Source of the DNA: a virus
Lineage: Duplodnaviria; Caudoviricetes
Length of the DNA stretch: 36,278 nucleotides
Direction: 5' to 3' (one strand)
IMG/VR virus record: IMGVR_UViG_3300032233_001741
Coordinates: 1-36,278 of that record
The position numbers and the translations under genes were made by a program. Positions 13,145 to 30,800 of this stretch are shown here, one piece after another (the stretch's first letter is position 1; each line of letters opens with the position of its first letter). The notes beneath the pieces were generated by a model. That model was not told the origin of the DNA. It did not search any database and saw only the letters and a program-made list of their open reading frames with translations.

Positions 13145-16100
13145 ATGGCTGATTTTAGACTAGGCAGATTAAAATTTAACTGGAGAGGTAACTGGGCACC
13201 AACCACTGCCTATGTTATTGATGATATAGTTAAATTTGGTGCTAACACGTATGTTTGTACCACGAATCATACCTCAGTATCATCAGAAACAACCTGGTAT
13301 GCTACTGATCTTGCTAAGTGGTCTTTACATGTTGAGGGAATTACCAATAGAGGTGATTGGACTCCTGCAACATATTATAAAATTAATGATTTAATTAAGT
13401 TCGGAAATACTCAATATAGAGTTACAACTGGATTTACATCTGGCGGAACATTTAGTTCCTCCAATATGGTCCAGTATTTTGGTGGTTTCAACTTTGAGGC
13501 TGGTTGGAACTCAGGTACTGAATATCAAACAGGCGACGTTGTATCTTACGGTGGATACAACTACATTGCTAAGACAGTAAATACCAATAAGGCACCAAGT
13601 TCATATACATCAGATTGGGATCCACTTACAAATGGATTTACATTTGTTGGTGCATGGAGTACTACTCGCTCATATATTCCTGGTGAAGTTGTAAGATTTG
13701 GTGGTTATTCATACGTTGCAAAAAATAATATTGGTGTTGCAGGAGCAGGGAAAACTACTAGTCCTGTTGCTGTTGGATATGGTACTCAGTGGGATCTGAT
13801 TGTTAAAGGTTTTGATTGGAAGAGTGCATGGTCTTCCCTCACAACCTATGAATTAGGAGATACTGTTTCTAGAAATAGCAATAGCTATGTTAGCGTTGCT
13901 TCTACTAACTTTAACAATTCTCCTGAAACTGATGCCTTAGGTACATATTGGAATCCACTGACAGAAGGTTCAGCAACGAACGTTCTTTCTGCCACTGGCG
14001 ATATGATCTATAAGAGTGGTGCAGGTGCTGCTGCTCTTACAATTGGTACTGCCGGTCAAGTACTTGGTGTTTCAACCACTGGTATTCCTAAGTGGTTAAA
14101 TAACAACACTACTTACCCAGTCTTCTATGTTTCTGAAGAGGGTAATGATTTAAATAATGGTAAGAATATTAGCAATTCATTTGCTACTATTGCTCGTGCT
14201 GTTGGTGTTGCTACAACTGGTCCTGCCACAATTTATGTAAAAGCAGGAACCTATGAAGAGCAATTCCCAATTATTCTTTCTGAAAATGTAACTCTTGTTG
14301 GCGATAACCTCAGAACTTCAAAAATTACTCCTGCTGTAGGTAATTCAAAAACTCAAATTCTGACAATTGATACTGCTTTTAGTGGTAGTATTTCTTATGG
14401 AAGTACTGTTGCTAATGGTGCGGGAACTAAGGTTGCTCGTGTTATGGAAGCAAACTACTTCCAGAATAAGATTGAAATTATGCAGGTAAGTGGTGGAGCA
14501 TGGACCACTTCCGATACTTATGCTCCAAATGGTTCAGTGATTAGTGCAGTTGAAACTCGCACTAACGCTCAGACAACAATGTTCTACTTAAGCAGTGCTA
14601 CGATGCTTAAGGATGTTCTATTTGAAGGTTTGACTGGGTTTTCTCCAGCAGGTGCAGTTCTGACACAGACTGGTACTATTTCTGGAACAATTCTCACTTC
14701 TACTGGATTATATCCAGATCTTGTTGGAACAACTGTTTCTGGGTCTACTGTTTCTCCTGGAAGTAAGGTTGTCAACTTTATTAGTTCAACTCAGGTAGAA
14801 GTTGATATTTCTCAAACAGTTGGATCAACTGCTCTTACATTTACTGCACCTTCCAGTGACATGAATAATGCCACTGTCAAAGGTGTGGCTGTAAGATTGA
14901 ATCCTTCTTCTCCAATCACCAAATCACCATACGTTTCAAACTGTTCCGTATACTCCACTGGTGGAGTTGGAGCAATTGTTGATGGTAAAACTCATGAACA
15001 GTATGATGCTGGTCCTGTAAAATCCAACAAATCTATTGTTTTTGACTCTTGGACCAACATTAACGATGATGGTGTTGCCTTCTGGGTAACAAATAATGGT
15101 GCAGCAGAAATGGTTTCTTGCTTCACTTATTATAACCATATTTCCTACACTTCAACTCGTGGTGGTAGAATTAGATCTCTTGCTGGCAACAGTTCTTGGG
15201 GCAACTATGGTATTGTTTCTTCTGGATATAACCAGTCAGAAGTACCTGCAACAGGTAAAGTTGAAGGACTTACCTTAAAGTATAATGTTGAGACTCTAAC
15301 TTCACCTGGATTCGTTCAGTATGAGAGAGTTCGTGGTGCCACATCAGGTGCTATTGGCATTATTAATTCAGTTCAAACTTCAAGTGCTACAATCTATTAT
15401 ACTCTTGTTACCAAAGGTCCAAACGTTGGAATCAGCTCTGGATTCCTTCAAAATGAAGTAATTCGTGGTTTGACTAGTGGCACAACTGCTAACCTAACGA
15501 ATAATACTGATGCAAACAGAGGACAAAAAGGATTTACTCTGATTACATCAGGACTTACTACCTCTCAGGTATATGAAGGTGGTAGTGTGGAATTTGTTAC
15601 AGGTAATGGATACGGTGGTACTTTATCTGGTATTGGAACTACAATTACTGGTGCAGATCCTTTCTCATATGTCGTCCAGTCAACTTCTTATACTGGTCCA
15701 GATGGTAGGGGTTCAATTGATATTCAGAGAGGTCAATTAACTACAGTTGCTGCAGGTCACACTGGTGGCATTAAGGTTATGAAGAACCTGCCATTTACTG
15801 CAAGCACAACAACACTTTCGGGTGCAGTTGGCGCAGGTGATACTGCAATTCCAGTATCTTCTACTGGTGGATTCCAACAAGGCGGTTATGTTCTTGCTCC
15901 ATCTGGAGAATTGATGCTTATCAATAGTTTCACTGGTGGAACTCAGATTAATGTGACTAGAGCATCCGAAGGAACATCTGCTTCTGGTGTGTCTGCAGGT
16001 GCTGCAATTACTGCTATTGGATTCCCAAATACATTAGCTCCCGAAACACTGAAGGACTTTACAGGTATCTCCACACAAATGAGAGTTACCTCAACTTCAG

Positions 16101-16687
16101 GATTCACGACCACTAACTTTGTAAGAATTGATAATGAAATTGTAAGAATAACTGCAATTCGTCCCGATACTACTGGTACTTTGATTGCTATTCTTGCTGA
16201 CGAAAAACCAAATTATGCATTTGACGAGCAGACTGTGAAAGTTAGATATCTATATTCACAGGTTCGTTTAACAGGTCACGATTTCTTACAACTTGGTACT
16301 GGTAATAAGGCAAATACTAATTGGCCTTCAACGCCACTTTCTAATCCTATTCCTTCAAGAGAAGTTAATGAGAGCTATCCTGGTCGTGTTTACTACGTAT
16401 CCACCGACCAAAATGGTAACTTCCGCGTAGGTAAGTACTTCCGTGTTAACCAGGCAACTGGTAGCGCAACTCTGAATGCTTCTGCGTTCGACTTGTCGGG
16501 TCTTACCTCCTTGAGACTGGGTTCTATTGGTGCTCAGTTGGGTGCTCAAATTAATGAATTCTCTGTTGACGGAACTCTGTCACAGAATAGTAATGAGAAG
16601 GTTGCCACTCAGGCAGCAGTCAAGACTTATGTTGATACTTCAATTCTTAAGTCCAGACCATTCGCATACTGGTTAGCATCTTCTTGA
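13145..16687 (+). CDS. Large tail fibre/appendage protein with N-terminal W-x5-Y carbohydrate-binding-like repeats
   Basis: MADFRLGRLKFNWRGNW start and five W.....Y...(D/E).V..G..SY type repeats. VFYVSEEGNDLNNG...FATIARA...IYVKAGTYEE looks like a beta-helix entry motif. C-terminal VATQAAVKTYVD. Confidence 0.85.
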   Translation: MADFRLGRLKFNWRGNWAPTTAYVIDDIVKFGANTYVCTTNHTSVSSETTWYATDLAKWSLHVEGITNRGDWTPATYYKINDLIKFGNTQYRVTTGFTSGGTFSSSNMVQYFGGFNFEAGWNSGTEYQTGDVVSYGGYNYIAKTVNTNKAPSSYTSDWDPLTNGFTFVGAWSTTRSYIPGEVVRFGGYSYVAKNNIGVAGAGKTTSPVAVGYGTQWDLIVKGFDWKSAWSSLTTYELGDTVSRNSNSYVSVASTNFNNSPETDALGTYWNPLTEGSATNVLSATGDMIYKSGAGAAALTIGTAGQVLGVSTTGIPKWLNNNTTYPVFYVSEEGNDLNNGKNISNSFATIARAVGVATTGPATIYVKAGTYEEQFPIILSENVTLVGDNLRTSKITPAVGNSKTQILTIDTAFSGSISYGSTVANGAGTKVARVMEANYFQNKIEIMQVSGGAWTTSDTYAPNGSVISAVETRTNAQTTMFYLSSATMLKDVLFEGLTGFSPAGAVLTQTGTISGTILTSTGLYPDLVGTTVSGSTVSPGSKVVNFISSTQVEVDISQTVGSTALTFTAPSSDMNNATVKGVAVRLNPSSPITKSPYVSNCSVYSTGGVGAIVDGKTHEQYDAGPVKSNKSIVFDSWTNINDDGVAFWVTNNGAAEMVSCFTYYNHISYTSTRGGRIRSLAGNSSWGNYGIVSSGYNQSEVPATGKVEGLTLKYNVETLTSPGFVQYERVRGATSGAIGIINSVQTSSATIYYTLVTKGPNVGISSGFLQNEVIRGLTSGTTANLTNNTDANRGQKGFTLITSGLTTSQVYEGGSVEFVTGNGYGGTLSGIGTTITGADPFSYVVQSTSYTGPDGRGSIDIQRGQLTTVAAGHTGGIKVMKNLPFTASTTTLSGAVGAGDTAIPVSSTGGFQQGGYVLAPSGELMLINSFTGGTQINVTRASEGTSASGVSAGAAITAIGFPNTLAPETLKDFTGISTQMRVTSTSGFTTTNFVRIDNEIVRITAIRPDTTGTLIAILADEKPNYAFDEQTVKVRYLYSQVRLTGHDFLQLGTGNKANTNWPSTPLSNPIPSREVNESYPGRVYYVSTDQNGNFRVGKYFRVNQATGSATLNASAFDLSGLTSLRLGSIGAQLGAQINEFSVDGTLSQNSNEKVATQAAVKTYVDTSILKSRPFAYWLASS

Positions 16688-16704: not shown

Positions 16705-16712
16705 TATAAATA
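16705..16712 (+). promoter_or_regulatory. T4 late promoter consensus
   Basis: Exact TATAAATA upstream of the gene at 16752, which has a GGGGAG SD. Confidence 0.8.
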
Positions 16713-16751: not shown

Positions 16752-17069
16752 ATGGCTTCTGGAGTATTGGGGCAAGTATCTCTTGCATCTACAACAAACA
16801 CAACAGTATATACGGTGCCTTCCAGCACAATTTCTTATGTAAACGTTAACGTTTCCAATAGAAATGCTTCTGACGTTGCAGTGCGTGTAGCACTTGCTGC
16901 TACTACAGCGCCTACAAACGCTGAGTATATCGAGTATGAATCCTTCATTGCACCTAATGGTGTTTTGGAAAGAACAGGATTAGTTCTCGAAGCTGGTAGA
17001 AAAGTCATCGCATATTCAAACTCAACAAACGTAAGCGTTAACGTTTACGGTGTCGAACAATCAGTATAA
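16752..17069 (+). CDS. Small fibre-associated beta-sandwich protein
   Basis: MASGVLG...TTVYTVP...VNVSNRN...VRVAL...EYIEYE..IAPNGVLERTGLVL; resembles both N-terminal domains of 26773-27855. Confidence 0.8.
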   Translation: MASGVLGQVSLASTTNTTVYTVPSSTISYVNVNVSNRNASDVAVRVALAATTAPTNAEYIEYESFIAPNGVLERTGLVLEAGRKVIAYSNSTNVSVNVYGVEQSV

Positions 17070-17463: not shown

Positions 17464-18645
17464 ATGGCTAATTTAAGAGATTTAATTGATTATACAAACA
17501 AAGCAGGTATTCAGACATCCCAATCATTGGGAGCAGTAGTTGCACCTCCAGCATCTCCAAATGCTGGTATTGCTGCAACTGCATTTATTCCAAGTTTTCC
17601 TGGATCTGCTTATAGGCAAATCAAATACCGCAACTATTGCGTTCAAGAATACAATTGCTGCAACTCATGCTTTATGTGGAAACCTCCTATGGGGACTACA
17701 TTTATTAAGTTTGAAATCTGGGGCAGTGGCGGTAGTGGTGCTGGGTCATGTTGCTGCGGTTGGGGAAATCCTGGCGGTTCTGCTGCTTATGCATTCAAGT
17801 GTATTTGCACTGGAAATGATTTGGGTGGATGTACGTATGAATTCTGTGTTGCAGGTGGTCCATGTGTTACTCCTCTTCAATTTGGATTCAAAGGTTGCAA
17901 GACATTTGTTGTTGGTTACGGTTTAAATAACTTCTGTGCCGAAGGTGGCGGCGGCGGTTCTTGGCATTGCCATTGCAACTGGGTTCTATCCTGTATGTGC
18001 GAGTATGATGTTGCTTGTGCTGAAGGTGCAAGATTCAATAACTGTGCCTACCAGATTTGTTCGGGAAGTCATGAGTCATTTACATGCCATTGCCTTCTTG
18101 CAAATAGCGTACATGGTACGGGTATGATTAACCCATTTGATATGTATGATAATACTCGTTATGATTGTGGCAAATCTACAGGACACTATGATCTAATTGG
18201 TATTGGTAATACGTTTGGATCATTTGGAAGAAGAGTTAAACTAAATCATGCACTTAACCCTTGTTATGGTGCTGCTTGTTACGGATGTTTATTCTGTGCG
18301 CCATTCTATGGTGCTGATGGCGGTGCAAGAGGACTTCCTGGAATGGTTGGATCTCCATGTAACCAAGCTGCTGATGACTTCTGTATGGTTAACCAATATA
18401 TTCCATATTCTGGTGGATTAATTAATACTCGTGGTGGGTACATCATCAGAAGAAATAGTGACATGAATAATAGTGGTAATAACGGGCATCCAAACGACTT
18501 TAATGAATTCTTTGGATATAGTGGCAGTAACCTGGGTCATGGTATTCCTGGATTTGGTGGAAGAACAGCACAGTCTTATGGTGGTAATAATTGCTATTGT
18601 GGTGGATATGGTGGATCTGGTCAAGTTATCATTACCTACGGTTAA
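17464..18645 (+). CDS. Cys/Gly-rich protein, paralogue 1
   Basis: FEIWGSGGSGAGSCCC...PGG.AAYA.K, GCKTFV.G.GL.NFCAEGG, YGADGG, C-terminal GQVIITYG; 32 Cys in 393 aa by manual count. Confidence 0.85.
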   Translation: MANLRDLIDYTNKAGIQTSQSLGAVVAPPASPNAGIAATAFIPSFPGSAYRQIKYRNYCVQEYNCCNSCFMWKPPMGTTFIKFEIWGSGGSGAGSCCCGWGNPGGSAAYAFKCICTGNDLGGCTYEFCVAGGPCVTPLQFGFKGCKTFVVGYGLNNFCAEGGGGGSWHCHCNWVLSCMCEYDVACAEGARFNNCAYQICSGSHESFTCHCLLANSVHGTGMINPFDMYDNTRYDCGKSTGHYDLIGIGNTFGSFGRRVKLNHALNPCYGAACYGCLFCAPFYGADGGARGLPGMVGSPCNQAADDFCMVNQYIPYSGGLINTRGGYIIRRNSDMNNSGNNGHPNDFNEFFGYSGSNLGHGIPGFGGRTAQSYGGNNCYCGGYGGSGQVIITYG

Positions 18646-18656
18646 GGAGAAGAATA

Positions 18657-19619
18657 ATGTCAGAGTTAAGAAGACTTTTAAATACGGAAAATCAAACTGA
18701 ACTCCAAAAACGTACTTGTGGATTTAAGTCTACACAGTGGGGTAATGGTTGGGGTAACACTCTTGTAGATGGATTCACCAATTATTATGGTGGATATTGC
18801 TGGCAAGATACCTGTAACACCGCATATCGTCAGTGGTGTATGGGATATTGCGTATTCCCTGGTGTAACTACCGTCCAGTTTGAAATCTGGGGCGGTGGTG
18901 GTGGTGGTGCAGGTGGTTGCTGCTGCCAACAAGGTTCTCCTGGTGGTTCAGGGGCTTATGCACTTAAGACTCTTTGTGCGTCTGATCTTGGAGTTGATAC
19001 TCTTGGTGGCATGTGCTACCTGATTTGTATTGGTCCTAACTCACAATGCTCTATTAACTGTACTGGATGCCAAGGATGTAAGACTTGGATCACTGGTTGT
19101 GGTCTCAGTAACTTCTGTGCTGATGGTGGAATGTCAGGTAGAACCTGCTGCTACATCTTCCATGATGCTCATGGTGCAAACTTAACAGGTACTTATGGTC
19201 CTGGTGGTGGTGGTAAGAGTGCATGGAACTCTGGTGGATGCTTTACTCTCGATCCAGTTTCTGGATCCTGCTATGCTTGTGACTGTGCTTGCTATTATGG
19301 TGCAGACTTTGGTGTTGCTGGTAGACCTGGTTGGTTCCGCGTAGATTGTATCTGTGGAAATAACTGCTTCGTAAGAATGGGTCTCGCACAAGCTGGCGGA
19401 TTCAAAGATAAATGCACCAGATATGTTATTACCAGAAACGAAGGTAATGCTTGCTTACATCAGAGAACAAACTGCTGGTCGGGTGAATTCCCTGCCAACC
19501 TTGATTGTAACTCTGGTGGCACAAGAGGTCAGGGTCAGATGTCAGCTACAACATGTGCTGGTAGTTGCTGCTATGGATGGAGAGGATCACCAGGTCTTGT
19601 CCGTATTACTTACAGATAA
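18657..19619 (+). CDS. Cys/Gly-rich protein, paralogue 2
   Basis: Start moved to the ATG at 18657 (MSELRRLL; AAGGAG SD at 18644-18649). FEIWGGGGGGAGGCCC, GCKTW..G.GLSNFCADGG, GLVRITYR; 34 Cys in 320 aa by manual count. Confidence 0.85.
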   Translation: MSELRRLLNTENQTELQKRTCGFKSTQWGNGWGNTLVDGFTNYYGGYCWQDTCNTAYRQWCMGYCVFPGVTTVQFEIWGGGGGGAGGCCCQQGSPGGSGAYALKTLCASDLGVDTLGGMCYLICIGPNSQCSINCTGCQGCKTWITGCGLSNFCADGGMSGRTCCYIFHDAHGANLTGTYGPGGGGKSAWNSGGCFTLDPVSGSCYACDCACYYGADFGVAGRPGWFRVDCICGNNCFVRMGLAQAGGFKDKCTRYVITRNEGNACLHQRTNCWSGEFPANLDCNSGGTRGQGQMSATTCAGSCCYGWRGSPGLVRITYR

Positions 19620-19625
19620 TAAATA
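19619..19625 (+). promoter_or_regulatory. T4-like late promoter
   Basis: ATAAATA between Cys-rich paralogues 2 and 3. Confidence 0.55.
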
Positions 19626-19649
19626 CTCATTAACAGGGATACTTCAGAA

Positions 19650-20621
19650 ATGGCAAACCTTAGGACTTTATTAGGCACATCAGATACTAATTTTACCGGT
19701 ATTCACTCCGGTGGTATTGGTAGACTGAGAGAAGGTCAAGTAACCTACTTCATGGCTCACATGTGTGGTTCTTGTAGCTCATATGAATTAACATGTTGCC
19801 AAGCTCCTGCTGGTGACTATACATCGGGTTACAACAACTTTAGTTACTGCTGCTGGAAAGTTCCTTCCTATCCTGGTGTAGGAACAACAGTAGTCACCTT
19901 CGAAATCTGGGGTGGAGGAGGCGGCGGTGCTGGTGCCTGCTGCTGTGCTTATGGTATCCCTGGTGGTGCTGGTGCCTATGCATATAAGTCAGTTATTGGA
20001 GTCTCATCTGGAACTGTTTATAACTTCTGTATCGGAAGTGTTGCATGTAGGACTGATAGTCCAAATGGAACTGATGGTTGTAAGACATATGTAACTGGTA
20101 TTGGTCTAACTAACTTCTGTGCTGATGGTGGTAAGAGAGGTTGCAGTTACTGTCAGTGCTGTCTTGGTAATGCTTTTTATTGCCACTTTAGAACGGGAAT
20201 TGGTAGCACTGATAAACCGATTGATGGTTATGGTGGGTTCCAAGACGTTGTAGGATTGAATACTTCATGTGTTGGATGCTGCTCCTTGTACTACGGTGCT
20301 GACGGTGGCGCTGTTGGACTTTACGGTGCATATCAATTCAACTGTAAGCAGAATAGATTGTGGAATAAATTCTTCATCCCATATCCAGGTGGTCTTGTAA
20401 ACCAGCAAGGTGGTTGGGTTGCTTGGAGTCAGGGTGATAATTCAAGTTGCGGTTATTGCGCTCAGTGTGGTGTTGCTGGAGAAATTGGTTTTGGTGGTCC
20501 ATTCGAACAGAATTATGTTCCTGGTTTGGGCGGTCCTTCTGCTGTCGTTTGTGCTGGCGGTTGCTGCTGCGGAACTCAGGGATGGGCTGGTGCGGTTCGT
20601 GTAACCGTCCGCTACATCTAA
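19650..20621 (+). CDS. Cys/Gly-rich protein, paralogue 3
   Basis: MANLRTLL, FEIWGGGGGGAGACCC, GCKTYV.G.GLTNFCADGG, YYGADGG, GAVRVTVRY; 29 Cys in 323 aa by manual count. Confidence 0.85.
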   Translation: MANLRTLLGTSDTNFTGIHSGGIGRLREGQVTYFMAHMCGSCSSYELTCCQAPAGDYTSGYNNFSYCCWKVPSYPGVGTTVVTFEIWGGGGGGAGACCCAYGIPGGAGAYAYKSVIGVSSGTVYNFCIGSVACRTDSPNGTDGCKTYVTGIGLTNFCADGGKRGCSYCQCCLGNAFYCHFRTGIGSTDKPIDGYGGFQDVVGLNTSCVGCCSLYYGADGGAVGLYGAYQFNCKQNRLWNKFFIPYPGGLVNQQGGWVAWSQGDNSSCGYCAQCGVAGEIGFGGPFEQNYVPGLGGPSAVVCAGGCCCGTQGWAGAVRVTVRYI

Positions 20622-20630
20622 TTGTCTTTA

Positions 20631-20637
20631 ATAAATA
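20631..20637 (+). promoter_or_regulatory. T4-like late promoter
   Basis: ATAAATA 26 nt before the ATG at 20664. Confidence 0.55.
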
Positions 20638-20663
20638 TTCTAAATTAGGGGTTACTATTTAAA

Positions 20664-21539
20664 ATGACTATTATCAAAAAGAAATTTACTTATGATTTAC
20701 CAGATGAATATCTGGCACAAACAAAAGATCTTGGATTAACTGGCGAATGGGAATATGAAGGTCCCAATAAAGTTTACGTTCATGTAGACAAAAAAACCAA
20801 TGTTATTCTACCTCAGTGTAGTTGCCAATCTCATGATGATGAGAGAACTCAAGAAGAGAACGACCATATTATGGACGTTTATACTGGACTTGATGCATAT
20901 CATGCTCCAATTGAATTTGATAAGGATCCTGTTTTACTTTCTTGCTTCTTCCCTAAGCTTGCTAGTGATATGTCCCAAAAGGAATATACACATCCTGTGA
21001 CTGGAGAGGTTTTCTACAGCAGACCAGATCCAATTATGCCAGATCATACCATTCAATTTGATCAAGTTGAATATGATTTTGAGAAGAAAGAGTGGAAAAA
21101 ACCATATCCAATGAGACAACCTCATATTACAAGAGATCAATTTGAGGCAGCCTATAATGGCATTTTAGCAAATTATAAAGTAACTCCAACAGAAAACTAT
21201 ACTTCAGCACAAAAGAAAAAGTGGTCTGATTTTATTAAGGAATTTGAAGCAGTTCCTACAAAGTTTGCTGACTATATGGATACTCCTTGGATGGTTCCAT
21301 TTCCAAGTGATCCAAGAATGGATGAGAAGTGGGGTGTTGAAAATGATGGTTTGATTTCTGAAACTCCAATCACAGAAAATCCTGATGCTGCTCCTTCTGC
21401 TGTAGTTGTAGAAGAAACTCCTGTTAAGGATTTGTCTGGATATGATGTAGAAGCACTTGCTGAAGCAGAACTTACTGATGAAGAAAAAGTCTCTGAAGAA
21501 ACACCCGAAAGATTTAAGATTGGTGTTGGTACTACCTGA
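20664..21539 (+). CDS. Hypothetical protein, possibly a tail fibre assembly chaperone, with an acidic C-terminal tail
   Basis: 291-aa acidic ORF directly after the tip-protein genes. KKKWSDFIKEFEAVP...WMVPFPSDP loosely resembles the W..YR..LRDLP...V.WP..P end of phage tail assembly chaperones. Confidence 0.6.
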   Translation: MTIIKKKFTYDLPDEYLAQTKDLGLTGEWEYEGPNKVYVHVDKKTNVILPQCSCQSHDDERTQEENDHIMDVYTGLDAYHAPIEFDKDPVLLSCFFPKLASDMSQKEYTHPVTGEVFYSRPDPIMPDHTIQFDQVEYDFEKKEWKKPYPMRQPHITRDQFEAAYNGILANYKVTPTENYTSAQKKKWSDFIKEFEAVPTKFADYMDTPWMVPFPSDPRMDEKWGVENDGLISETPITENPDAAPSAVVVEETPVKDLSGYDVEALAEAELTDEEKVSEETPERFKIGVGTT

Positions 21540-21563
21540 TAGAGTGTAGATAATACTACAGAG

Positions 21564-21592
21564 GGGGGTCAGAAATGACCCCCTTTACTTTT
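21564..21592 (+). terminator. Rho-independent terminator
   Basis: GGGGGTC-AGAAAT-GACCCCC followed by TTTACTTTT. Confidence 0.8.
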
Positions 21593-21593
21593 G

Positions 21594-21600
21594 CTAAATA
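21594..21600 (+). promoter_or_regulatory. T4-like late promoter for the sugar-modification operon
   Basis: CTAAATA immediately after the terminator, 39 nt before the ATG at 21640 (GAGG SD). Confidence 0.6.
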
Positions 21601-21639
21601 GCAACGTATAATTAAAACATTATCCCCTTTGAGGCGAGT

Positions 21640-22806
21640 ATGAGACCAAAAGCATTTTTTGTGAATGGCGGAGCGGGGCGTGTAGTTTGCTCTATTCCAG
21701 CATTTGAAAAGTATCAAGAAGAAAATCCTGATGAAGATTTCCTGATTGTCTGCGAAGGTGGAACAGATTTCTTTAAAGGACACGCAACACTTTATCCTAG
21801 AGTTTACGATCATTGGCATAAAAATCTCTTCAGAGATAAGCTGAAGGATATGGATATAGTTACAACAGAACCATATCGTGTTTGGGAATACTATAATCAA
21901 AAGTGCAATCTCTCTCAGGCTTTTGATATTCAAATCAACGATAAAGGTATTCGAGAACTTCCAAAACCAACCATTAAACTTTCCAGGCAAGAATTTATCA
22001 GTGGAAAGTTTGTCTTGGAAGATGTAAGACAAAAAACAAAGAAAGATAAAATAGTAGTATTCCAACCCTTTGGTCGGGGAACTCAAGTAATGGGCAATTT
22101 TATCACTGATTCCAGTGGTAGAAGTTTTGAAATGGCGAATGTTGTTGGACTTGTTAAAAAATTGCAGAGAAAGTATGCTGTAATTTATATGGGCGAAATT
22201 GAAATTGATTTCCAAAAAGAAGGATGCAAAGATCCTGTTGCTACTCCTAGAGGAATTGATTTACGAGCATGGGCTGGTATTATTGGTGAGTCTGATCTTT
22301 TCCTGGGGTGTGATTCTGTAGGACAGCATCTTGCATATTCTCTAGATATTCCTTCCGTAGTCGTAGTGGGTGCTACATGCAAAGAAAATATTTCTTATCC
22401 AAACTCTGATAAGTTTGAAGTTCTTGATATGGGAGAAGGTCTGAGAATCTACGATCCTATTCGTATTACAATGGATGAGGTAACTCAACGTGTAAACGAT
22501 GGTATCATGGCAATGAATGGTAAGATTGAAGATGTTATCGTTCAATCCATCGACAAATTGATGAACAAATATTATGTCAAGAAGAATGAAAACATTGTTC
22601 TTCCAACGATGGATCAGCAACAACAATCTTGTGGTATGCCACCAGCAGCACCAGTTGGTAGTTTGACTGGCGCACCTGCACCAGAGGTTGCACTCTCCCC
22701 AAATAAGCAAAGAAAGAGTGCTATTGACGAATTGATGTCTGAGGCAGTAAAATCTGCTAATGGTACTAAAAAGTCAACAGGATTTCTTGATACGATTCAA
22801 AAATAA
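21640..22806 (+). CDS. GT9-like (heptosyltransferase-like) GT-B glycosyltransferase
   Basis: C-terminal WAGIIGESDLFLGCDSVGQHLAYSLDIPSVVVVG matches the GT9 DSGxxHLAxAxxxP motif; IVVFQPFG strand-loop; N-terminal GGAGR in place of GxGD. Confidence 0.7.
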   Translation: MRPKAFFVNGGAGRVVCSIPAFEKYQEENPDEDFLIVCEGGTDFFKGHATLYPRVYDHWHKNLFRDKLKDMDIVTTEPYRVWEYYNQKCNLSQAFDIQINDKGIRELPKPTIKLSRQEFISGKFVLEDVRQKTKKDKIVVFQPFGRGTQVMGNFITDSSGRSFEMANVVGLVKKLQRKYAVIYMGEIEIDFQKEGCKDPVATPRGIDLRAWAGIIGESDLFLGCDSVGQHLAYSLDIPSVVVVGATCKENISYPNSDKFEVLDMGEGLRIYDPIRITMDEVTQRVNDGIMAMNGKIEDVIVQSIDKLMNKYYVKKNENIVLPTMDQQQQSCGMPPAAPVGSLTGAPAPEVALSPNKQRKSAIDELMSEAVKSANGTKKSTGFLDTIQK

Positions 22807-22822
22807 TTAAAGGTAATTTTAT

Positions 22823-24508
22823 ATGACAATTATTGCATCAATTGCCCGTGGTCACAACGGGAGCACAACTTTAATGAAGGATGGTGAGATCATCTTTTAT
22901 CTTGAGGAAGAGCGCCTTTCTAAGATGAAGTATGATGGGTCACCCCTTCTTGGTCTGGCAAAAGTATTTGACTATGTAGATCATATCGATCACCTTGTAG
23001 TTTGTCATACTCATCGCCATGGTCCTCAATTGGATTGGACTGGTGAAGATCTATATCATGGTTGGGTGAGGAAACTTGCTAAGAAAAAGTTTGATTTTAA
23101 AGTTCATTTTATTGATCTAATTCACCATGAAATGCACGCTGCATGTGGTTTTTATAACTCAGGTTTTGAAACTGCCGCATGTGTAATTGCAGATGGAGCT
23201 GGCAGTTTCCTTCAGTATGAAGGTATTGATGATGTTCTATTTGAATTTGAAACTATCTTCAAGGCTTCTTATCCAAAAACTTTTGATGTAGTTTATAAGC
23301 ATCTTGGCACAAAAGCAGCAGTTGGTTGTAATCAAGTTGATACTGGAGTATTTGTTACCGAGTATCCAGGTCATACAAAAATGTATGAAGCAGTAACAGA
23401 GTATTGTGGTTTCCCTGCGATTGAGGCAGGCAAACTGATGGGTCTTGCTCCTTATGGAAAACCAAATGAAGACCTTCCCAAGTTCTTCAGTAATGGTTGG
23501 AGTAATCGTGAGTTGATTATTCCTACATATCCAAATGCTGCTAAGATTAATGTTGGCAGGTATCCTATTCTGATTGATGATGTTGAGAATCATCAAGAAG
23601 GTCAGTATACTGATATTCAAAAGGATATGGCATATGCGATTCAGGAAGCAACTGAGAATCGTATGATTGAACTGATCCGCAAGGCTCATGAAGAAACTGG
23701 TGAAACAAACATCGTTATTTGTGGCGGTTATGGTTTGAACTGTGTTGCAAACTATAAGTATCTTCAGGCATTCCCAGATTTGAATATCTACTGCGAACCA
23801 ATCTCTCATGATGGAGGCACTTCAATCGGTGGTGCTAACTACATCTGGCACGATGTTTCTGCTAAGAAGTCTGCTAAGAAGCAGGCATCTGTTTATTACG
23901 GTCCTCAGTATGATCCTACTACGTATGAAGATGCTCTCAATGGACTTGAAGTAACTGATACTTCTTACGATGAAGTTGCGAAACTGATTCGTGAAGGTAA
24001 CATCGTCACTGTATATCAGGGTCGTTCCGAAGGTGGTCCTCGTGCTCTGGGTAATCGTTCTATTCTCTTTGATCCTACCATTAAGGATGGCAAGGATATT
24101 GTGAATGCAGTCAAGCATCGTGAATGGTTCCGTCCTTTTGCTTGTTCTATTAAGCAAGATAAAGTTAATGATTGGTTTGATCTGGCTGGTCGTGATGAAA
24201 CTCCTCACATGATGTATGCTGTCAAGTGTCATCCTGGAGTTGAAGAAAAGATTCCTTCAGTGATTCACGTTGATGGAACCTGCCGCATTCAGACAGTAAC
24301 TACAGAACAGAACGAGCACTATTATAATCTGATTGATGCCTTTGAGAAACTGAGTGAAGTTCCCATTCTGTTTAATACAAGTTTCAATCTGGGTGGAGAT
24401 CCTCTGGTTGAAACTGTTGAAGACGGTGTTAATACCTTGAAGAGGTGTGATATTGAGTATATGTATCTTCCTGAAATTCAGAAACTTGTTTATATTCCTA
24501 ACGAATGA
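22823..24508 (+). CDS. Carbamoyltransferase, NodU/CmcH family
   Basis: EEERLSK.K, HHEMHA, DGAG, GKLMGLAPYG, GGYGLNCVANY, EGGPRALGNRSIL, VKHREWFRPFA, HVDGTCRIQTV, NTSFN. Confidence 0.95.
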   Translation: MTIIASIARGHNGSTTLMKDGEIIFYLEEERLSKMKYDGSPLLGLAKVFDYVDHIDHLVVCHTHRHGPQLDWTGEDLYHGWVRKLAKKKFDFKVHFIDLIHHEMHAACGFYNSGFETAACVIADGAGSFLQYEGIDDVLFEFETIFKASYPKTFDVVYKHLGTKAAVGCNQVDTGVFVTEYPGHTKMYEAVTEYCGFPAIEAGKLMGLAPYGKPNEDLPKFFSNGWSNRELIIPTYPNAAKINVGRYPILIDDVENHQEGQYTDIQKDMAYAIQEATENRMIELIRKAHEETGETNIVICGGYGLNCVANYKYLQAFPDLNIYCEPISHDGGTSIGGANYIWHDVSAKKSAKKQASVYYGPQYDPTTYEDALNGLEVTDTSYDEVAKLIREGNIVTVYQGRSEGGPRALGNRSILFDPTIKDGKDIVNAVKHREWFRPFACSIKQDKVNDWFDLAGRDETPHMMYAVKCHPGVEEKIPSVIHVDGTCRIQTVTTEQNEHYYNLIDAFEKLSEVPILFNTSFNLGGDPLVETVEDGVNTLKRCDIEYMYLPEIQKLVYIPNE

Positions 24509-24906
24509 AAAAAGTTTTTGTAAATGGCACTTTTGATTTACTTCATTCGGGTCATATACATCTCCTAAACTATGCAAAAAGTTTAGGAGACTTTTTGTAT
24601 GTGGCAATTGATACTGATGAAAGAGTTAAAGAGAAGAAGGGTTCATCAAGACCAATTTATAGTTTAGAAGAAAGAATCTTTCATCTACAAAATCTTAAAC
24701 CCGTGAATGTAGTTCTTTCCTTTGGAACTGACGAACAGTTAGAAGATCTTGTAAAAATTACAAAACCTGATATAATGGTTGTAGGATCTGACTGGAAAGG
24801 GAAACCTATTATTGGTTCCCAGTACGCTAAAAAATTTGTATTTTTTGATCGAATAGAAGAATATGCCTCAACAAAAACAATACAAAGTATTATTGATCGG
24901 AGATAG
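24505..24906 (+). CDS. Cytidylyltransferase-family nucleotidyltransferase (HldE/RfaE domain II-like)
   Basis: VFVNGTFDLLHSGH (HxGH), KKGSSRPI...ER, KPDIMVVGSDW; ATGA-coupled to the carbamoyltransferase. Confidence 0.88.
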   Translation: MKKVFVNGTFDLLHSGHIHLLNYAKSLGDFLYVAIDTDERVKEKKGSSRPIYSLEERIFHLQNLKPVNVVLSFGTDEQLEDLVKITKPDIMVVGSDWKGKPIIGSQYAKKFVFFDRIEEYASTKTIQSIIDRR

Positions 24907-25624
24907 TTGTGAGGACGAATACATCTATGGAAAGTGTGAGCGTCTAAGTCCTGAAGCTCCAGTGCCCGTAATGAAGTTTTCAAAGACAGAAGTGAAGGCA
25001 GGGATGGCAGGTAATGTATGCCTCAATCTTCAGGCATTTAATATGCATATTACTTTTCTTACAAATTCTGAAAAGATTGTAAAGACAAGAATGATTGATG
25101 AAAAATCTAATCAACAACTTCTTCGTGTGGATGTTGAAGATACTGTGAAACCTCTTCACCTACCAGTGTCAACAGATAGTTTTGATGCTGTTGTGATTTC
25201 TGATTATAACAAAGGATATGTGACGGATAAAAAGTTGTTTGAAATTGTGAGTGAATGCAACGTTCCTATTTTTATTGATAGTAAAAAGCAATATCTACCA
25301 AACAAGAAAAATTGCTTTGTAAAAATTAATGATATTGAATATTCTAAATTGAGTCAAGATTGTCAAATAGATAATCTAATAGTAACCAAAGGTGGTGAGG
25401 GATGCCTATATAATAACACTTTGTATCCTGCAGAAAAGGTAAAGGTATATGATGTGGCAGGTGCAGGTGATACCTTTCTTGCTGCTTTAGTTTATGGATA
25501 TCTTTGCTATGAAAGTATTGAAAGGGCAATACTGTTAGCAAATAAAGCAGCATCTATAGCAGTTCAAAATCAAGGAACTTATGTATTAACGGAGGATGAT
25601 GTGAATGGATTCTTGCAAGATTAA
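24863..25624 (+). CDS. PfkB-family sugar kinase (HldE/RfaE domain I-like, heptose-7-phosphate kinase)
   Basis: LLIGDSCEDEYIYGKCERLSPEAPVPV, VVISDYNKG and VYDVAGAGDTF are diagnostic RfaE domain I motifs. Confidence 0.9.
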   Translation: MPQQKQYKVLLIGDSCEDEYIYGKCERLSPEAPVPVMKFSKTEVKAGMAGNVCLNLQAFNMHITFLTNSEKIVKTRMIDEKSNQQLLRVDVEDTVKPLHLPVSTDSFDAVVISDYNKGYVTDKKLFEIVSECNVPIFIDSKKQYLPNKKNCFVKINDIEYSKLSQDCQIDNLIVTKGGEGCLYNNTLYPAEKVKVYDVAGAGDTFLAALVYGYLCYESIERAILLANKAASIAVQNQGTYVLTEDDVNGFLQD

Positions 25625-25976
25625 GATGGTCCCCAAGGGATGGGGATTTGAAAAATGGATTGTAAATAATGAAGAGTATTGTGGAAAGCTTCTTTACTTT
25701 GTGAAGGGTGGTAAATGTTCCTTCCACTATCACATTTTAAAAGATGAAACTTTCTATATTCAAAGTGGAAAGATTCTTCTTAAGTATAGTACTTCTGATA
25801 GTATTGAAGAATCTCAAGAAATAATCCTCTCCCAAGGTGATAGGTTTCACGTTGAGAGAGGATTGAGACATCAAATGATTGCCCTGGAAGATACTGAGAT
25901 GTTTGAATTCTCAACTCAGCACTTTGAGTCTGACAGTATTAGGGTTGTTCCTGGAGATAGTCTGAAACTGTCTTAA
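25605..25976 (+). CDS. Cupin-domain protein (sugar isomerase-like)
   Basis: VPKGWGFEKWIVN...CSFHYHILKDETFYI...RHQM...FEFST: cupin HxH...E...H metal ligands. Confidence 0.85.
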   Translation: MDSCKIKMVPKGWGFEKWIVNNEEYCGKLLYFVKGGKCSFHYHILKDETFYIQSGKILLKYSTSDSIEESQEIILSQGDRFHVERGLRHQMIALEDTEMFEFSTQHFESDSIRVVPGDSLKLS

Positions 25977-26733
25977 ATTTATAATTCGGCAACCAATTCA
26001 TATCAGCACATGTATATGATTGGTATTTGCCAACTAAATGATCTGGAAAGGGAATGGTATTGATTTTACCATTCTCTTTTTTTGTAACCAATTCTGCTAC
26101 CTCTTGAAATGATATTGGATTTGCTGTGCCAATATCATAGATACCACTTGGAGCATCGTTATTTAAAACGATATCCACTACATCATCGACACAAACAAAG
26201 TCACGAAGAAACTTATCAGATCCTTCGAAGAGATTCAGTTCTCCAGTTTCTCTGATTTGTTTTGCAAATTTACTGACTGGACTGGCTTGATCGCCTTTAT
26301 AATCTTCTCCATCTCCATAGACATTAAAGTATCTGAATCCTTGAATCAGTGGAAACTTATTAAGGTTATCTAATACGCAGTAATCTATTTGAAGTTTTGA
26401 GATTGCATACTGATTCAAAGGATTAATTTGCCCTTGAGTATTTCCATATACTGAAGCAGATGATGCATACTTAAATGGAATTTGATATTCCATTGCATAC
26501 TCTAAAAGAAACAATGTGAATGCAACATTGTTGTGGTATATGGTGCGAATATTTTTTTCGGTTGTAGATGAGATGGCACCTTGATGGAGGATGAGTTCTA
26601 CTTTATCCCACTCATCAAAGTCTCTAAGGAACCTATAGGCATCATCTTTTTCAATTAAAATCACATCTTTATCTTCTAATTTCTTTAAGAAATTTTGTCC
26701 GATAAATCCAGCGTGTCCTGTTAATACAATCAT
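25939..26733 (-). CDS. hldD: ADP-L-glycero-D-manno-heptose 6-epimerase-like NAD-dependent epimerase
   Basis: MIVLTGHAGFIG, HQGAISSTTE, YASSASVYG, PLNQYAISK (YxxxK), GFRYFNVYG, LFEGS..FLRDFVCVDD, GKYQSYTCAD. Confidence 0.88.
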   Translation of the reverse strand: MIVLTGHAGFIGQNFLKKLEDKDVILIEKDDAYRFLRDFDEWDKVELILHQGAISSTTEKNIRTIYHNNVAFTLFLLEYAMEYQIPFKYASSASVYGNTQGQINPLNQYAISKLQIDYCVLDNLNKFPLIQGFRYFNVYGDGEDYKGDQASPVSKFAKQIRETGELNLFEGSDKFLRDFVCVDDVVDIVLNNDAPSGIYDIGTANPISFQEVAELVTKKENGKINTIPFPDHLVGKYQSYTCADMNWLPNYKFKTVSDYLQEQP

Positions 26734-26772: not shown

Positions 26773-27855
26773 ATGGCATTTGGCCTGCTCGCTTCAACTA
26801 TACCGATTATAAACAAGGATACATCACTGTATACTTCTTCTTCTGGTACTTTGGTTGAAGGTAAAATTTCCATATCCCATAAAAATTATAATCCTGTCAA
26901 GGTTCGTGTTGCGATCTCCACGAATGGTGTAGATCAGGACTACTTACATTATAACAGGATTATCAATTATGGGGAAACTTTTGAAACTGACACTATTTAT
27001 TTTGGCAACGGACAAAGAATTCTTGTCAGATCAACTGATCCTGACACCAACTTTGTTTTGTATGGAGAGACTTCAACTGATTCTACAAACTCTGGATTTT
27101 TATCTTCAGTTCAAACTGCAGGTAAAACTGAGTTAACATTATATACTGCTCCTGTTGGATATAATGTTACTGCTACAGTTGTTGCATGTAATCTTAATTC
27201 TGTTCCTGCTGTAGCAAGACTTGGAATTACAACAAATTCTTTGGTTGGATTTACTACATCACAGTTTCTTGAGTATGATGCTTCCATAGAACCAGGGCAA
27301 ACTTACGTCAGAAAGGATCTTAAATTATCCCCAGGTCAGACATTAGTTTGTTCCTCAAGTGATTATTCTTATGTGAACTATGTTGTTTATGGAGTTAAAA
27401 CTTCATCCACAACTGTAGCAGTAGATGCAACTTTTGCAACATTAACTGCCAACAAATTGGTAGTTCAAAATGGTGGGGTTGTTACTGGAGTCCTTACTGC
27501 AACATCATTTAATGGATCTATTAATGCTTCTAATCTGACGGGGCGCATTCCAGACTCAGTAACTGGTTCAAGTATTATATCACAATCTAAAGGATTGGTG
27601 GTTGGGGCAGCAAATACAATTAACTTTAATAGTAATTTAAACGTCGTTAATACCAATAGAGTTGCAACAGTAAACTTGGATCAAAATATTAATATTACAT
27701 CAGCAACATTATCTGGTGCATTGAGCGTTGGGTCCACAATCAATGCACTAAATAATAAAGTTATTAACGTAGGGACCGCAACTTCAAATAGTGATGCGGC
27801 AAACAAGTTGTATGTGGATACGAGATCTATTGTGATGTCAATTTCACTATCTTAA
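26773..27855 (+). CDS. Virion structural protein: two tandem small beta-sandwich domains plus a short fibre segment
   Basis: Two copies of the 16752-like domain (GLLAS...SLYT / GFLSS...TLYT), then GVVTGVLTATSFNG and DAANKLYVD fibre motifs. Confidence 0.78.
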   Translation: MAFGLLASTIPIINKDTSLYTSSSGTLVEGKISISHKNYNPVKVRVAISTNGVDQDYLHYNRIINYGETFETDTIYFGNGQRILVRSTDPDTNFVLYGETSTDSTNSGFLSSVQTAGKTELTLYTAPVGYNVTATVVACNLNSVPAVARLGITTNSLVGFTTSQFLEYDASIEPGQTYVRKDLKLSPGQTLVCSSSDYSYVNYVVYGVKTSSTTVAVDATFATLTANKLVVQNGGVVTGVLTATSFNGSINASNLTGRIPDSVTGSSIISQSKGLVVGAANTINFNSNLNVVNTNRVATVNLDQNINITSATLSGALSVGSTINALNNKVINVGTATSNSDAANKLYVDTRSIVMSISLS

Positions 27856-27880
27856 TAGCAAACTTAGGAGATAATTATCA

Positions 27881-30800
27881 ATGGCTAAAAGACAGATTAG
27901 AGATTATGTTTTTACTCCTGGTATTGCTGGGGTAGGTAATATTAAAATCCTGGATAAAATCCAGTTAAATCAGATTTTAATTATTACAAATACTACAGAT
28001 AATAGAGTTCTGTATAATTTTGCGGATCCAACGAATAAAATCCTAGTTGAATTTAGTGCTAGTTTTGATTCTTCGTTCCCATATGCAACATCGGCATCAA
28101 ATGGCGTAACCACCATACATTTTCAGTTTGATACCTCAGACCAAAGTTCGACGGATTCAATTTCAATTTTTATTGAGGTAGAAGAAACACAATTCAGGCC
28201 ATATGATTTTGGTACTGACGCTATCGAAAGAATGAGGGTTGCAACTCCGCAATCCATGATTGACGCCGACTTTGAGTATGGAATTCAACCAACCAAATGG
28301 CAAACTATTGATTTAATCCGTGGATATCCAAGTATCTATGAGATTGCTGGATCTGATGTTACTGTTTCGGCAGTTGTCACTGATGCAAGTTTCCCTGCTG
28401 GCGGAATTGGCGCATCTCTAATTAGTGTTACCACTACAGAAACTCACGGTCTTTCTCCTGGAAGTCCATTTAGAATCGTTGGTCTTGCAGAAAGTATAAG
28501 GGGATCTTCAAGAGCAGAAGGATCTTTTATTGTAGAGACTGTTATTTCCTCAACCACATTTACCTATTTTGCCAAGGGTAAGGTGGGTGTAAATCAGGGC
28601 GATTCTTTGGTTGCTACATACACTCAACTAAGAAAGGGTGGTTTCTACACTGGAGCTTCAATTGGATCTCCAACATATAGCGTTCAGTCTAATGGTAATA
28701 CTGGAACATTTACAACTAAATTAATTACTCAAACTGGATCAACAAGAATTGCATATACTGGAGTTAATAATTCGATTGTAGGTTCTCCTTTAACTGCATC
28801 TGGTCTTCTTAGTGGAACTCAAGTAACTGGTATTACATCAACATCTGCTACAACGGTTTTCGCACAAAACGTTGCTCCACCAACTAACTTGATTCAAGTT
28901 GCCAGCAATTCTGGAATTAGTGTTGGTAATGCCATCGACGATGGATCTGGAAAATCAACATTCGTTACTAACATTGATGGGAATACTCTTACCCTATCAT
29001 CTCCATATACTGCAGTTGCTGTTGGTAACTCCACCAACGTTGGCATCATAACAGCCTCCAGTGTTAATTTTGGAAATGGCGCCGATGCTATCTTCAATGT
29101 TGACAGATATAATGGAAGATATACTCCAACGGTTGTGAATACTGGATATGGATATACAACTGGCGATAGAGTTGTTGCTCTTGGTTCTTCATTAGGTGGT
29201 ACATCCCCAACAAATAATCTTATTATTTACGTTAGAGGTGTTGATGCTGGTGGCGGAATTACAACGTTTACTACATCAAAATATTTTGCTCCGGTAAATG
29301 AAGCTGCACTATCTCAAACACAATATAAGTTTGGAAATGCTTCTCTTCTTCTGAATCCAACTTCTGGTGGTATTGATTATGTCACCTGTGCTTCTAATTT
29401 AGACTTTGCGATTGGAACACAAGACTTTACAATTGAATTTTGGATTTATAGAAACCGAAATGGTGTTGCAGAAACCATTTTTGACATGAGAAATGTATTG
29501 ACAGAATTCTCTCCTTGTTTGAAGATCAGTACTAATAATACACTTGTCCTTCACTTAAACGGTGTTGATGTTAAGGAAAGTGCAAATACTATTACTGCAG
29601 GGTCTTGGAACCATGTTGCACTATCAAGAACATCTGGAGTAACAAAACTATATCTTAATGGTACTCAGGAGAGTACTAATTATGCAGACTCAAATAATTA
29701 TCCTCAGAGAGCAATTAGAATTGGTTCTGCATATGATACTACCAATGGAACTTATGCATACATTGATGATTTCAGATTTACTGTAGGATTATCCAGATAT
29801 ACATCTTCAACATATGCAATACCTTCAGCACACGTAACAGATATTTACACTAAAGCTTTAGTACCATTTAATGGCAATAGTGGAGATGTAGATTTCCCAG
29901 ACAATGCTTATGGAACTGCTGTATCAAGTTCTTCGGCATATTACAATACAAGTGGTATTTCAACTAGTGTTGGTTTTGGCGCAGTTTTTGATATTGTTAG
30001 AGTTGGTGGTGCCACAACATCCTATACTGTAAACTTTATTGCGGGGCAAGCATCAACTGGAAGTTCATATAGTATTTCTGATGTTATTACAATTGATGGA
30101 TCTATACTTAATGGATCTTCTGGTACTAATGATATTGTTATTACAGTAACTTCTGTCGATGTTGTTGGTGGAATTACTGGTTTTAGTCATACTGGAACTG
30201 CTGTAAGTGGAAATGTATTCTATGCAAATCGTCGTGTAACAAATTCTGGATCTGGCGCAACATTCTCTATCTCTAAAGAGGGTGGAGTCTACACTGCTAC
30301 ACCAGTTAATGCTGGATCTGGATATTATCCCGGATATCAATTACGTGCTTTAGGAACCATATTGGGTGGAGTGACAACAGGGAATGACTTGACAATGACC
30401 GTGACTGGAATTAATTTGTCAGGAACTCCTGGTGCAATTTCTTCTGTGTCTTCATCAGGAACACCTGTTGGAGGAACTGCAGCAGTATTTTATCCAACAG
30501 TCAGTATTTCAGAAACAACAACGGGTCAGATTGCAGATGCTACATCAGTATCATTTAGTTCTTTGGCAAGAATTTTGGTACAATTTGGTAGCAATCATGG
30601 ACTTGTTCCTGGTGACACTGTTCTTTCTGCTATCACCAGTGTTGGTTCGGGACATAGTTTAGCATCGGGTCCATTTATTGTTGATAACGTACCCAATTCA
30701 AATCAGATTGTTTATAGTGCTAAATCAACAGGAGCAATTACATCAGCTGGACTTGCTGGAACAGTCTATCCAAGACCAGATTGCTTCTACGTTCATAGAC

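Follow-up and report, generated by a model that had tools for sequence, protein, structure and literature searches.

Predicted self-glycosylation of cysteine-rich fibre adhesins by a glycosyltransferase module of T4-like cyanophages

The window analysed in the present study is a 36-kb contig (36,278 nucleotides, the whole of IMG/VR record IMGVR_UViG_3300032233_001741) of a T4-like cyanophage, comprising approximately 17% of the genome and encoding psbA, fibre and baseplate genes, and a bilin reductase. Flanked by fibre genes at 13145–16687 on one side and 26773–32902 on the other, it carries a module in which three cysteine (Cys)-rich adhesin genes are followed by genes for a glycosyltransferase (GT), an O-carbamoyltransferase, and heptose synthesis-like enzymes. 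We propose, with a probability of about 0.65, that the phage glycosylates its own Cys-rich adhesins. The GT and Cys-rich fibre proteins occur together across phage loci, in the adhesin lineage and in fibre proteins of unrelated folds. A preliminary description of the window, made from the sequence alone, had suggested that the phage attaches a carbamoylated heptose to its fibre proteins. All open reading frames (ORFs) of the module were intact, in the region given there; the elements are as follows:

16705–16712, + strand: T4-type late promoter motif TATAAATA, ahead of the first Cys-rich ORFs and of small ORFs in the fibre module
17464–18645, + strand: Cys-rich adhesin paralogue 1, 393 aa, 32 Cys (phrog_4205; DNA repeats common to the paralogues)
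18657–19619, + strand: Cys-rich adhesin paralogue 2, 320 aa, 34 Cys (phrog_4205; start fixed by an AGGAGA site)
19650–20621, + strand: Cys-rich adhesin paralogue 3, 323 aa, 29 Cys (predicted Pam3 gp24-type fold; ATAAATA at 19619)
20664–21539, + strand: likely tail-fibre assembly chaperone (an atlas cluster lead; ATAAATA at 20631)
21561–21600, + strand: terminator-like hairpin (21561–21586), then CTAAATA (21594–21600)
21640–22806, + strand: GT9-clan GT-B glycosyltransferase with Arg14 at the catalytic Asp position (structure model, residue comparison)
22823–24508, + strand: NodU/TobZ-family O-carbamoyltransferase (PF02543 and PF16861; TobZ E 2.5e-47)
24505–24906, + strand: HldC-like nucleotidyltransferase, heptose-1-phosphate adenylyltransferase-like (TIGR02199 best NCBIfam match, 106.9 bits, cut-off 181.5)
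24863–25624, + strand: HldA-like PfkB kinase, heptose-7-phosphate kinase-like (TIGR02198 best match, 157.9 bits, cut-off 345)
25605–25976, + strand: cupin, candidate GmhA stand-in (PF07883)
25939–26733, − strand: HldD-like ADP-heptose 6-epimerase (TIGR02197, 220.6 bits, cut-off 274.6; 39% identity to Escherichia coli HldD)

RESULTS

Linkage of the GT with Cys-rich fibre proteins

The preliminary description called for a survey of whether GT, carbamoyltransferase, and Cys-rich genes co-occur and adjoin one another across phage genomes; run in both directions, the survey returned a strong association. Outward from the GT, with 64 of 125 distinct loci scorable, a 200-residue stretch of at least 8% Cys lay no more than 8 kb away in 31/31 close and 15/29 distant loci (flanks of at least 6 kb). 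The same threshold was reached in 8 of the 23 scorable metagenome GT loci versus 0/55 fibre loci without the GT, a control set from which the GT-carrying locus L339 is excluded. At a threshold of at least 6% Cys, the corresponding counts were 31/31 (close), 20/29 (distant), 12/23 (metagenome), and 5/55 (GT-free fibre loci). Inward from the fibres, a Cys-blind glycine motif scan of the first 80 of 121 loci yielded 71 distinct glycine-rich adhesin-type ORFs with a bimodal Cys content. Both the GT and the carbamoyltransferase were present in the locus for 12/12 ORFs with at least 10% Cys versus 1/59 ORFs with less than 3% Cys, and in the sole GT-bearing Cys-poor locus a further ORF has a Cys content of up to 13.5%. 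Adhesins with a CCC motif were accompanied by the GT in 32/32 loci with flanks of at least 5 kb, 12 of 44 loci having been dropped for short flanks.

Fibre proteins of unrelated fold, namely beta-roll fibres and an N4-like tail protein, provide more independent evidence of linkage than the adhesin lineage. All 11 beta-roll fibre ORFs beside the GT (10 loci) contained 3.1–6.2% Cys, and 111 of 127 blind-sampled beta-roll ORFs were Cys-free in their repeats. When 50 beta-roll contigs were chosen (13 with Cys, the others larger and free of Cys) and 47 searched, the GT was found in 3/13 Cys-bearing versus 0/34 Cys-free contigs (p 0.018). The first 350 aa of the N4-like Vibrio tail protein hold 19 Cys in the GT-bearing phages SBP1 and D497 versus 2–3 in three GT-free phages, of which VBP47 aligns poorly there. 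In Aeromonas phage HJ05, the GT lies directly behind a fibre gene reaching 8.5% Cys, for which no relative was found for contrast. Single divergent GT proteins used as queries recovered no loci, and the HJ05/N4 branch comprises three phage types. Enrichment was weaker in RCC1-type GT neighbours (approximately 4–9% Cys). At L222:2342–11037, Cys-bearing beta-roll fibres lie beside a different glycosyltransferase-like gene, which suggests that pairing with Cys-rich fibres may extend to other GT families.

The GT resembles GT9 enzymes on the donor side

On the basis of its structure model (pLDDT 97), the GT is a GT-B-fold enzyme of the GT9 clan. Its closest solved folds were 3tov (Z 23.4), WaaF (21.4), TibC (19.6), and WaaC (18.9), with 253–280 residues aligned; the plant NDH subunit 7wff ranked fourth (19.1), and the next match had a Z of 12.0. 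A sequence search against the PDB returned no match and the GT profile matched only WaaF, weakly, while PF01075 was detected on 36/78 family members at E ≤ 0.01 and not on the window GT itself. The GT keeps D225, H230, and R161 at the positions of WaaC D261, H266, and K192, and D225 is present in 360/360 homologues. Donor-side roles are assigned to WaaC D261 and K192 in the literature (PMC5713226).

The acceptor side differs. The position of the WaaC catalytic base (Asp13; Arg14 in the GT) was occupied by Arg in 339/344 aligned homologues drawn from 393 distinct GT sequences, in a register taken from the spacing of the G-x-x5-P motif and from global profile alignments forced onto WaaC and WaaF, not from structural superposition, since local profile comparisons stop short of the N-terminus. 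D13 is reported to be present in all lipopolysaccharide (LPS) heptosyltransferases examined in PMC5713226, and superposition of TibC on WaaC identified Asp110 as its TibC counterpart (PMC4358343).

Membership of the WaaC/WaaF family was rejected: the fold and donor side match, but Asp13 is replaced by Arg. Membership of the TibC/AAH (BAHT) family was likewise rejected, because the GT has no catalytic Asp, N-terminal barrel, or iron finger. Residue 1 of the model aligns to TibC residue 96, the N-terminal beta-barrel domain being absent, and in place of the four-Cys iron finger the GT has seven scattered Cys, one of them past residue 250. The comparison with GT9 and TibC/Aah enzymes drawn earlier is thus borne out for the clan and its fold but not for the TibC/Aah type. 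By sequence and model, the GT appears to resemble GT9 on the donor side while being a member of neither family.

The GT family comprises 3937 clusters at 90% identity and approximately 1600 viral stretches. A scan of GTDB genomes gave 19 GT loci, of which 15 are full-length. Each of these 15 lies on a contig of a metagenome-assembled genome, beside a carbamoyltransferase gene and a Cys-rich ORF, and in most of them phage fibre genes are also present; the family therefore appears to be phage-restricted. The GT loci in metagenome-assembled genomes (L607–L621) are assigned to numerous unrelated taxa and appear to be phage sequence binned in error.

The Cys-rich adhesins and the distribution of their Cys

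The three Cys-rich ORFs are paralogous (all phrog_4205) and contain 8–11% Cys. The remaining window fibre proteins contain 0–0.3% Cys; the enrichment is thus local. Paralogue 3, the only one modelled (pLDDT 78.8), aligned with Pam3 gp24 (7ypx_A) over 194 residues (Z 16.2, root-mean-square deviation 3.0, Foldseek E 1.3e-6) and with a Bxb1 tail-tip chain (Z 12.8), the next unrelated matches having Z values of at most 5.1. The model contains the TNF-like and glycine-rich domains characteristic of gp24/gp38-type adhesins, and Pam3 gp24 itself resembles the S16 gp38 adhesin (PMC9942802). The window adhesins are unlike both in their Cys content, in being three paralogues, and in their linkage to the GT. 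In almost every close locus the chaperone-like ORF comes after the Cys-rich genes, and it falls in an atlas cluster (score 0.92) with PF16778 on 46% of members, which is a lead from the atlas only. The tip and chaperone labels of the preliminary description accordingly hold. A tblastn search with Cys-rich ORF 3 matched only S-CAM1/3; as P-SSM2 and S-SSM7 also have Cys-rich genes, which it failed to recover, it was not used as a test.

Among 77 adhesins, 54% of the Cys fell in alignment columns conserved in less than 50% of sequences, approximately nine Cys columns per adhesin were strongly conserved, and 39 of the 77 had an odd Cys count. In the beta-roll fibres, Cys were unstacked between rungs (21 observed versus 26.7 expected). 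The majority of adhesin Cys behave as scattered, exchangeable sites, and by analogy with Pam3 a core of structural disulfides is possible.

A predicted late promoter of the GT operon

The preliminary description had placed the GT operon under a late promoter. The motif TATAAATA was not found upstream of the GT; instead, CTAAATA lies 45 nt 5′ of the gene, after the terminator-like hairpin. TAAATA occurs 15–80 nt 5′ of the GT in 43/53 distinct relatives (background 3.5%) versus before the carbamoyltransferase in 1/53, suggesting that the GT operon probably has its own late promoter. A sigma-70-like match overlaps the CTAAATA site, and such matches were not enriched (39 vs 31.7). The late motif upstream of the ORF at 16752 is conserved in 30/44 relatives. 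For hldD, no late motif was found in the window, and one was present in 5/30 relatives. The late-promoter claim thus probably holds for the operon through the conserved CTAAATA/TAAATA element, but not through TATAAATA, and hldD is mostly motif-free.

Heptose supply and glycan tailoring

Heptose synthesis, as previously read from these genes, is supported in part. The HldA-, HldC-, and HldD-like proteins have the respective NCBIfam models as best matches with motifs intact, yet all score below curated cut-offs, and GmhA and a phosphatase are missing from the window. GmhA was not found in complete S-CAM1 and P-SSM2 either. The phosphatase is present in 24/28 close hld loci, and no HAD gene lies between kinase and cupin in the window or in the related loci L005, L006, and L059. 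The PHROG label 'phosphoheptose isomerase' was rejected, because the genes so labelled are HAD phosphatases (TIGR01689 best match); the mislabelled genes, such as L001:18919–19242 and L002:24024–24368, probably serve the GmhB step and have been lost in the window and those three loci.

The cupin accompanies hld genes in 28/28 close and 12/17 distant loci and was seen in no scored locus without hld; in phage Bellamy, it lies between HddA- and HddC-like genes. Because of this co-occurrence and position, the cupin is a candidate non-orthologous sedoheptulose-7-phosphate isomerase that may replace GmhA. Isomerase families were found on 12–17% of members of cupin look-alike clusters, and the PHROG label 'cysteine dioxygenase' was rejected. 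The cupin (25605–25976 in the window; L626:6488–8461) tracks both ADP-heptose (HldA/C/D) and GDP-heptose-like (HddA/C) genes, with GmhA unseen.

The hld genes lie near the GT in 28/40 close and 17/32 distant loci. HldA was detected in 12/29 records, including cyanophages S-CAM1 and P-SSM2; it was not found in the complete GT-bearing Vibrio/Aeromonas phages HJ05, SBP1, and D497, nor in several incomplete contigs. The gammaproteobacterial hosts of HJ05, SBP1, and D497 make ADP-heptose themselves.

The pairing of GT and carbamoyltransferase holds in 40/40 close loci but in 19/32 distant ones, 13 lacking it. In distant loci, additional GTs, methyltransferases, and sulfotransferases take the place of the carbamoyltransferase or accompany it, a pattern to be expected if the capping of the glycan varies. 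Several other arrangements were observed. A second, divergent carbamoyltransferase lies right behind the first in L007, L008, L009, L012–L015, L017, L040, and L052. In giant phages (L039:10996–11916 and L062–L084), a conserved ORF without a Pfam match, the start of which presumably resembles an SGNH hydrolase/acyltransferase, lies between GT and carbamoyltransferase with no hld nearby. In L085–L107, a GT clade lies beside RCC1-repeat proteins, a sulfotransferase, APS kinase, and methyltransferases, together with TPR proteins bearing a GT9-like motif that retains Asp; this set resembles a broader toolkit for virion glycans, and its Cys enrichment is weaker.

Other features of the window

Within the fibre module, 8697–12257 encodes a 1186-aa protein of repeated 'GSGSLF' units (phrog_11522). 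A free-standing HNH endonuclease is encoded right behind psbA (1768–2193).

DISCUSSION

Considering these results, the module likely acts as follows. Late in infection, the phage would make nucleotide-activated heptose, the donor probably being ADP-heptose formed via HldA, HldC, and HldD, with the cupin taking the GmhA step and a phosphatase encoded elsewhere taking the GmhB step. The GT would then transfer heptose to nascent Cys-rich adhesins of the fibre tip, possibly as a thioglycoside on the Cys sulfur. A thiol acceptor would be consistent with the lost Asp, since a thiol needs no such base, and Arg could stabilise the thiolate. The TobZ-like carbamoyltransferase is predicted to cap a sugar hydroxyl, and the resulting coat would serve to adjust binding to the receptor or to protect the exposed tip against oxidation and proteolysis. 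Precedents exist for parts of this scheme: SenB is a base-free GT-B enzyme acting on a self-ionising selenium acceptor (PMC10891094), the GT-B enzyme LmbT forms an S-glycoside with an octose (PMC12945683), and Pseudomonas HepII carries a carbamoyl group (PMC8005017).

Attachment on Cys is a tentative prediction, held at somewhat less than even odds, and attachment elsewhere on the same proteins seems rather unlikely, S-linkage being rated likelier than any other linkage on the adhesins. With similar reserve, we suggest that the GT may represent a family of protein S-heptosyltransferases that is widespread among phages and derives from GT9 by a change of the Asp base to Arg; its members would place heptose or carbamoyl-heptose thioglycosides on dozens of fibre Cys, unrelated folds evolving Cys once the gene arrives.

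Several observations weigh against adhesin glycosylation or its linkage to Cys. The 12 and 32 Cys-rich adhesins of the two fibre-based tests are mostly one lineage, so that p values overstate independence; the GT–Cys link is weaker in distant clades, with 5/23 metagenome loci below 4% Cys; and 10/13 Cys-bearing beta-roll contigs (7–37% complete) lack a GT of the window family. In the window, a glycine-rich adhesin-type ORF (7728–8681, 35% Gly) has no Cys at all. Among the 77 adhesins, 30% of the Cys fall in columns at least 80% conserved, and variable Cys are replaced mostly by Q/R/H/Y/K with no preference for Ser (0.93-fold). Pam3 fibres are anchored by disulfides through virion Cys (PMC9942802). 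The GT family has an invariant Glu77, which could be an alternative base and so allow an O-linkage; Arg14 could simply bind phosphate. On the supply side, GmhA was not found among the families of the window and was found in 1/28 related records, no GmhB/HAD phosphatase is encoded in the 36-kb contig, which is 17% complete, and phage S-SM2 has hld-like genes without a window-type GT, so that sugar genes of this kind also occur outside the module. The earlier proposal of self-glycosylated fibres is thus supported in part, by the linkage, the tip and chaperone labels, and the poor fit of LPS and DNA as targets, whereas the pathway is incomplete in the window, hld genes occur without the GT, and the GT is not of the TibC type.

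The published view of P-SSM2-type 'LPS genes' is that they remodel the host surface (PMC1079782, PMC3037559, PMC12801897), here LPS or another envelope glycan, against superinfection or grazing. WaaC/WaaF are among the closest solved folds of the GT, the Pseudomonas inner core contains carbamoyl-heptose with WapO as putative carbamoyltransferase (PMC8005017), and the hld-like genes of S-SM2 without such a GT would suit this view. We nevertheless consider it improbable. The LPS of Synechococcus WH8102 and CC9311, which may not be the host of the window phage, contains neither heptose nor 3-deoxy-D-manno-oct-2-ulosonic acid (Kdo) (PMC4515613), the WaaC catalytic base is missing, the full-length GTDB hits all adjoin Cys-rich and carbamoyltransferase genes, mostly with phage fibre genes, and a late promoter would be more in keeping with assembly than with exclusion; Cys enrichment would also be left unexplained. 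Hypermodification of phage DNA, in the manner of T4 glucosyltransferases or of the phage carbamoyltransferases of the same Pfam family that modify 5-hydroxymethylcytosine (PMC8670742), is more improbable still. The latter activity is tied to a thymidylate-synthase homologue, and carbamoyltransferases on unmodified contigs sit by glycosyltransferases (PMC8670742). PF00303 was found in 0/12 records, including complete S-CAM1 and P-SSM2, and in none of 81 neighbour proteins scanned; on this ground DNA modification was rejected, and both the late motif and the location of the module favour a role in virion assembly. The preliminary preference for the virion over host LPS, with DNA modification as an alternative, is thus supported by the heptose- and Kdo-free LPS of the two Synechococcus strains, the apparently phage-restricted GT, and the lack of PF00303.

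The strongest remaining rival to adhesin glycosylation, though itself unlikely, is that the Cys form a disulfide or metal lattice while the GT-fold protein acts on another anionic acceptor or a small molecule, or is a non-catalytic helper travelling with the fibre module. The absence of the catalytic Asp, the shared fold of plant 7wff, the disulfide-anchored Pam3 fibres, the strongly conserved Cys columns, and the incomplete sugar pathway are all compatible with this. However, the donor-side residues of the GT are invariant, hld and tailoring genes (sulfotransferase, FkbM methyltransferase, GT1/GT2/GT25) cluster with it, odd Cys counts and unstacked Cys do not suit a lattice, and a hitch-hiking helper leaves the gain of Cys in unrelated folds unexplained. 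That the module is decaying in the window phage or serves a non-heptose sugar, both GmhA and the phosphatase being missing, appears very unlikely; the lack of a HAD gene in the window, L005, L006, and L059 versus its presence in most close hld loci and the below-cut-off hld matches speak for it, but all ORFs are intact with motifs, the contig is 17% complete, and complete S-CAM1 and P-SSM2 likewise lack GmhA.

Orthologues of the module occur in the same order in the T4-GC 302–308 'LPS gene' block of P-SSM2, S-SSM7, and S-CAM1/3, with GTs 48–67% identical to that of the window and annotated 'hypothetical'; the window copy lacks the HAD phosphatase. The adhesins proposed as acceptors in S-CAM1 and P-SSM2 are SXBG_00224-226 and PSSM2_304/306, respectively. 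The block has been described as host-surface genes or stuffer DNA (PMC1079782, PMC3037559), and the function of cyanophage LPS genes is stated to be unknown in PMC3037559; no link to Cys-rich adhesins was found in the accessible text of these two papers. TibC/AAH (PMC4358343) shares with the GT the GT9-clan fold, a heptose donor context, and an adjacent adhesin as likely substrate. TibC, however, modifies Ser, whereas the window module shows Cys enrichment and its GT has no barrel, iron finger, or Asp. Pseudomonas WaaC/WaaF with WapO (PMC5713226, PMC8005017) share the fold, the donor-side Asp/His, and the pairing of heptosyltransferase and carbamoyltransferase; the GT differs in the change of Asp13 to Arg and its apparent phage restriction, and the two reported Synechococcus LPS structures offer no Kdo acceptor. 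In mycobacteriophage Che8, a phage-encoded glycosyltransferase acts on virion proteins (Freeman et al. 2023, cited in PMC13445384 and PMC12619734), as is proposed here from genes. Its glycans are O-linked on capsid and tail tube, whereas the window module would act at the fibre tip, using a heptose donor that the phage makes itself, adding a carbamoyl cap, and possibly linking the sugar to Cys. Our search of open-access literature found neither a paper proposing an adhesin target for the GT module nor a report of a GT9 enzyme that densely S-glycosylates a structural protein.

If the proposal is true, the 'LPS genes' carried by abundant phages of marine and fresh waters would be reassigned to modifying the receptor-binding tip of the virion, and host range would depend on a glycan and not on sequence alone. 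A GT9 enzyme capable of dense S-glycosylation would also be a useful tool enzyme.

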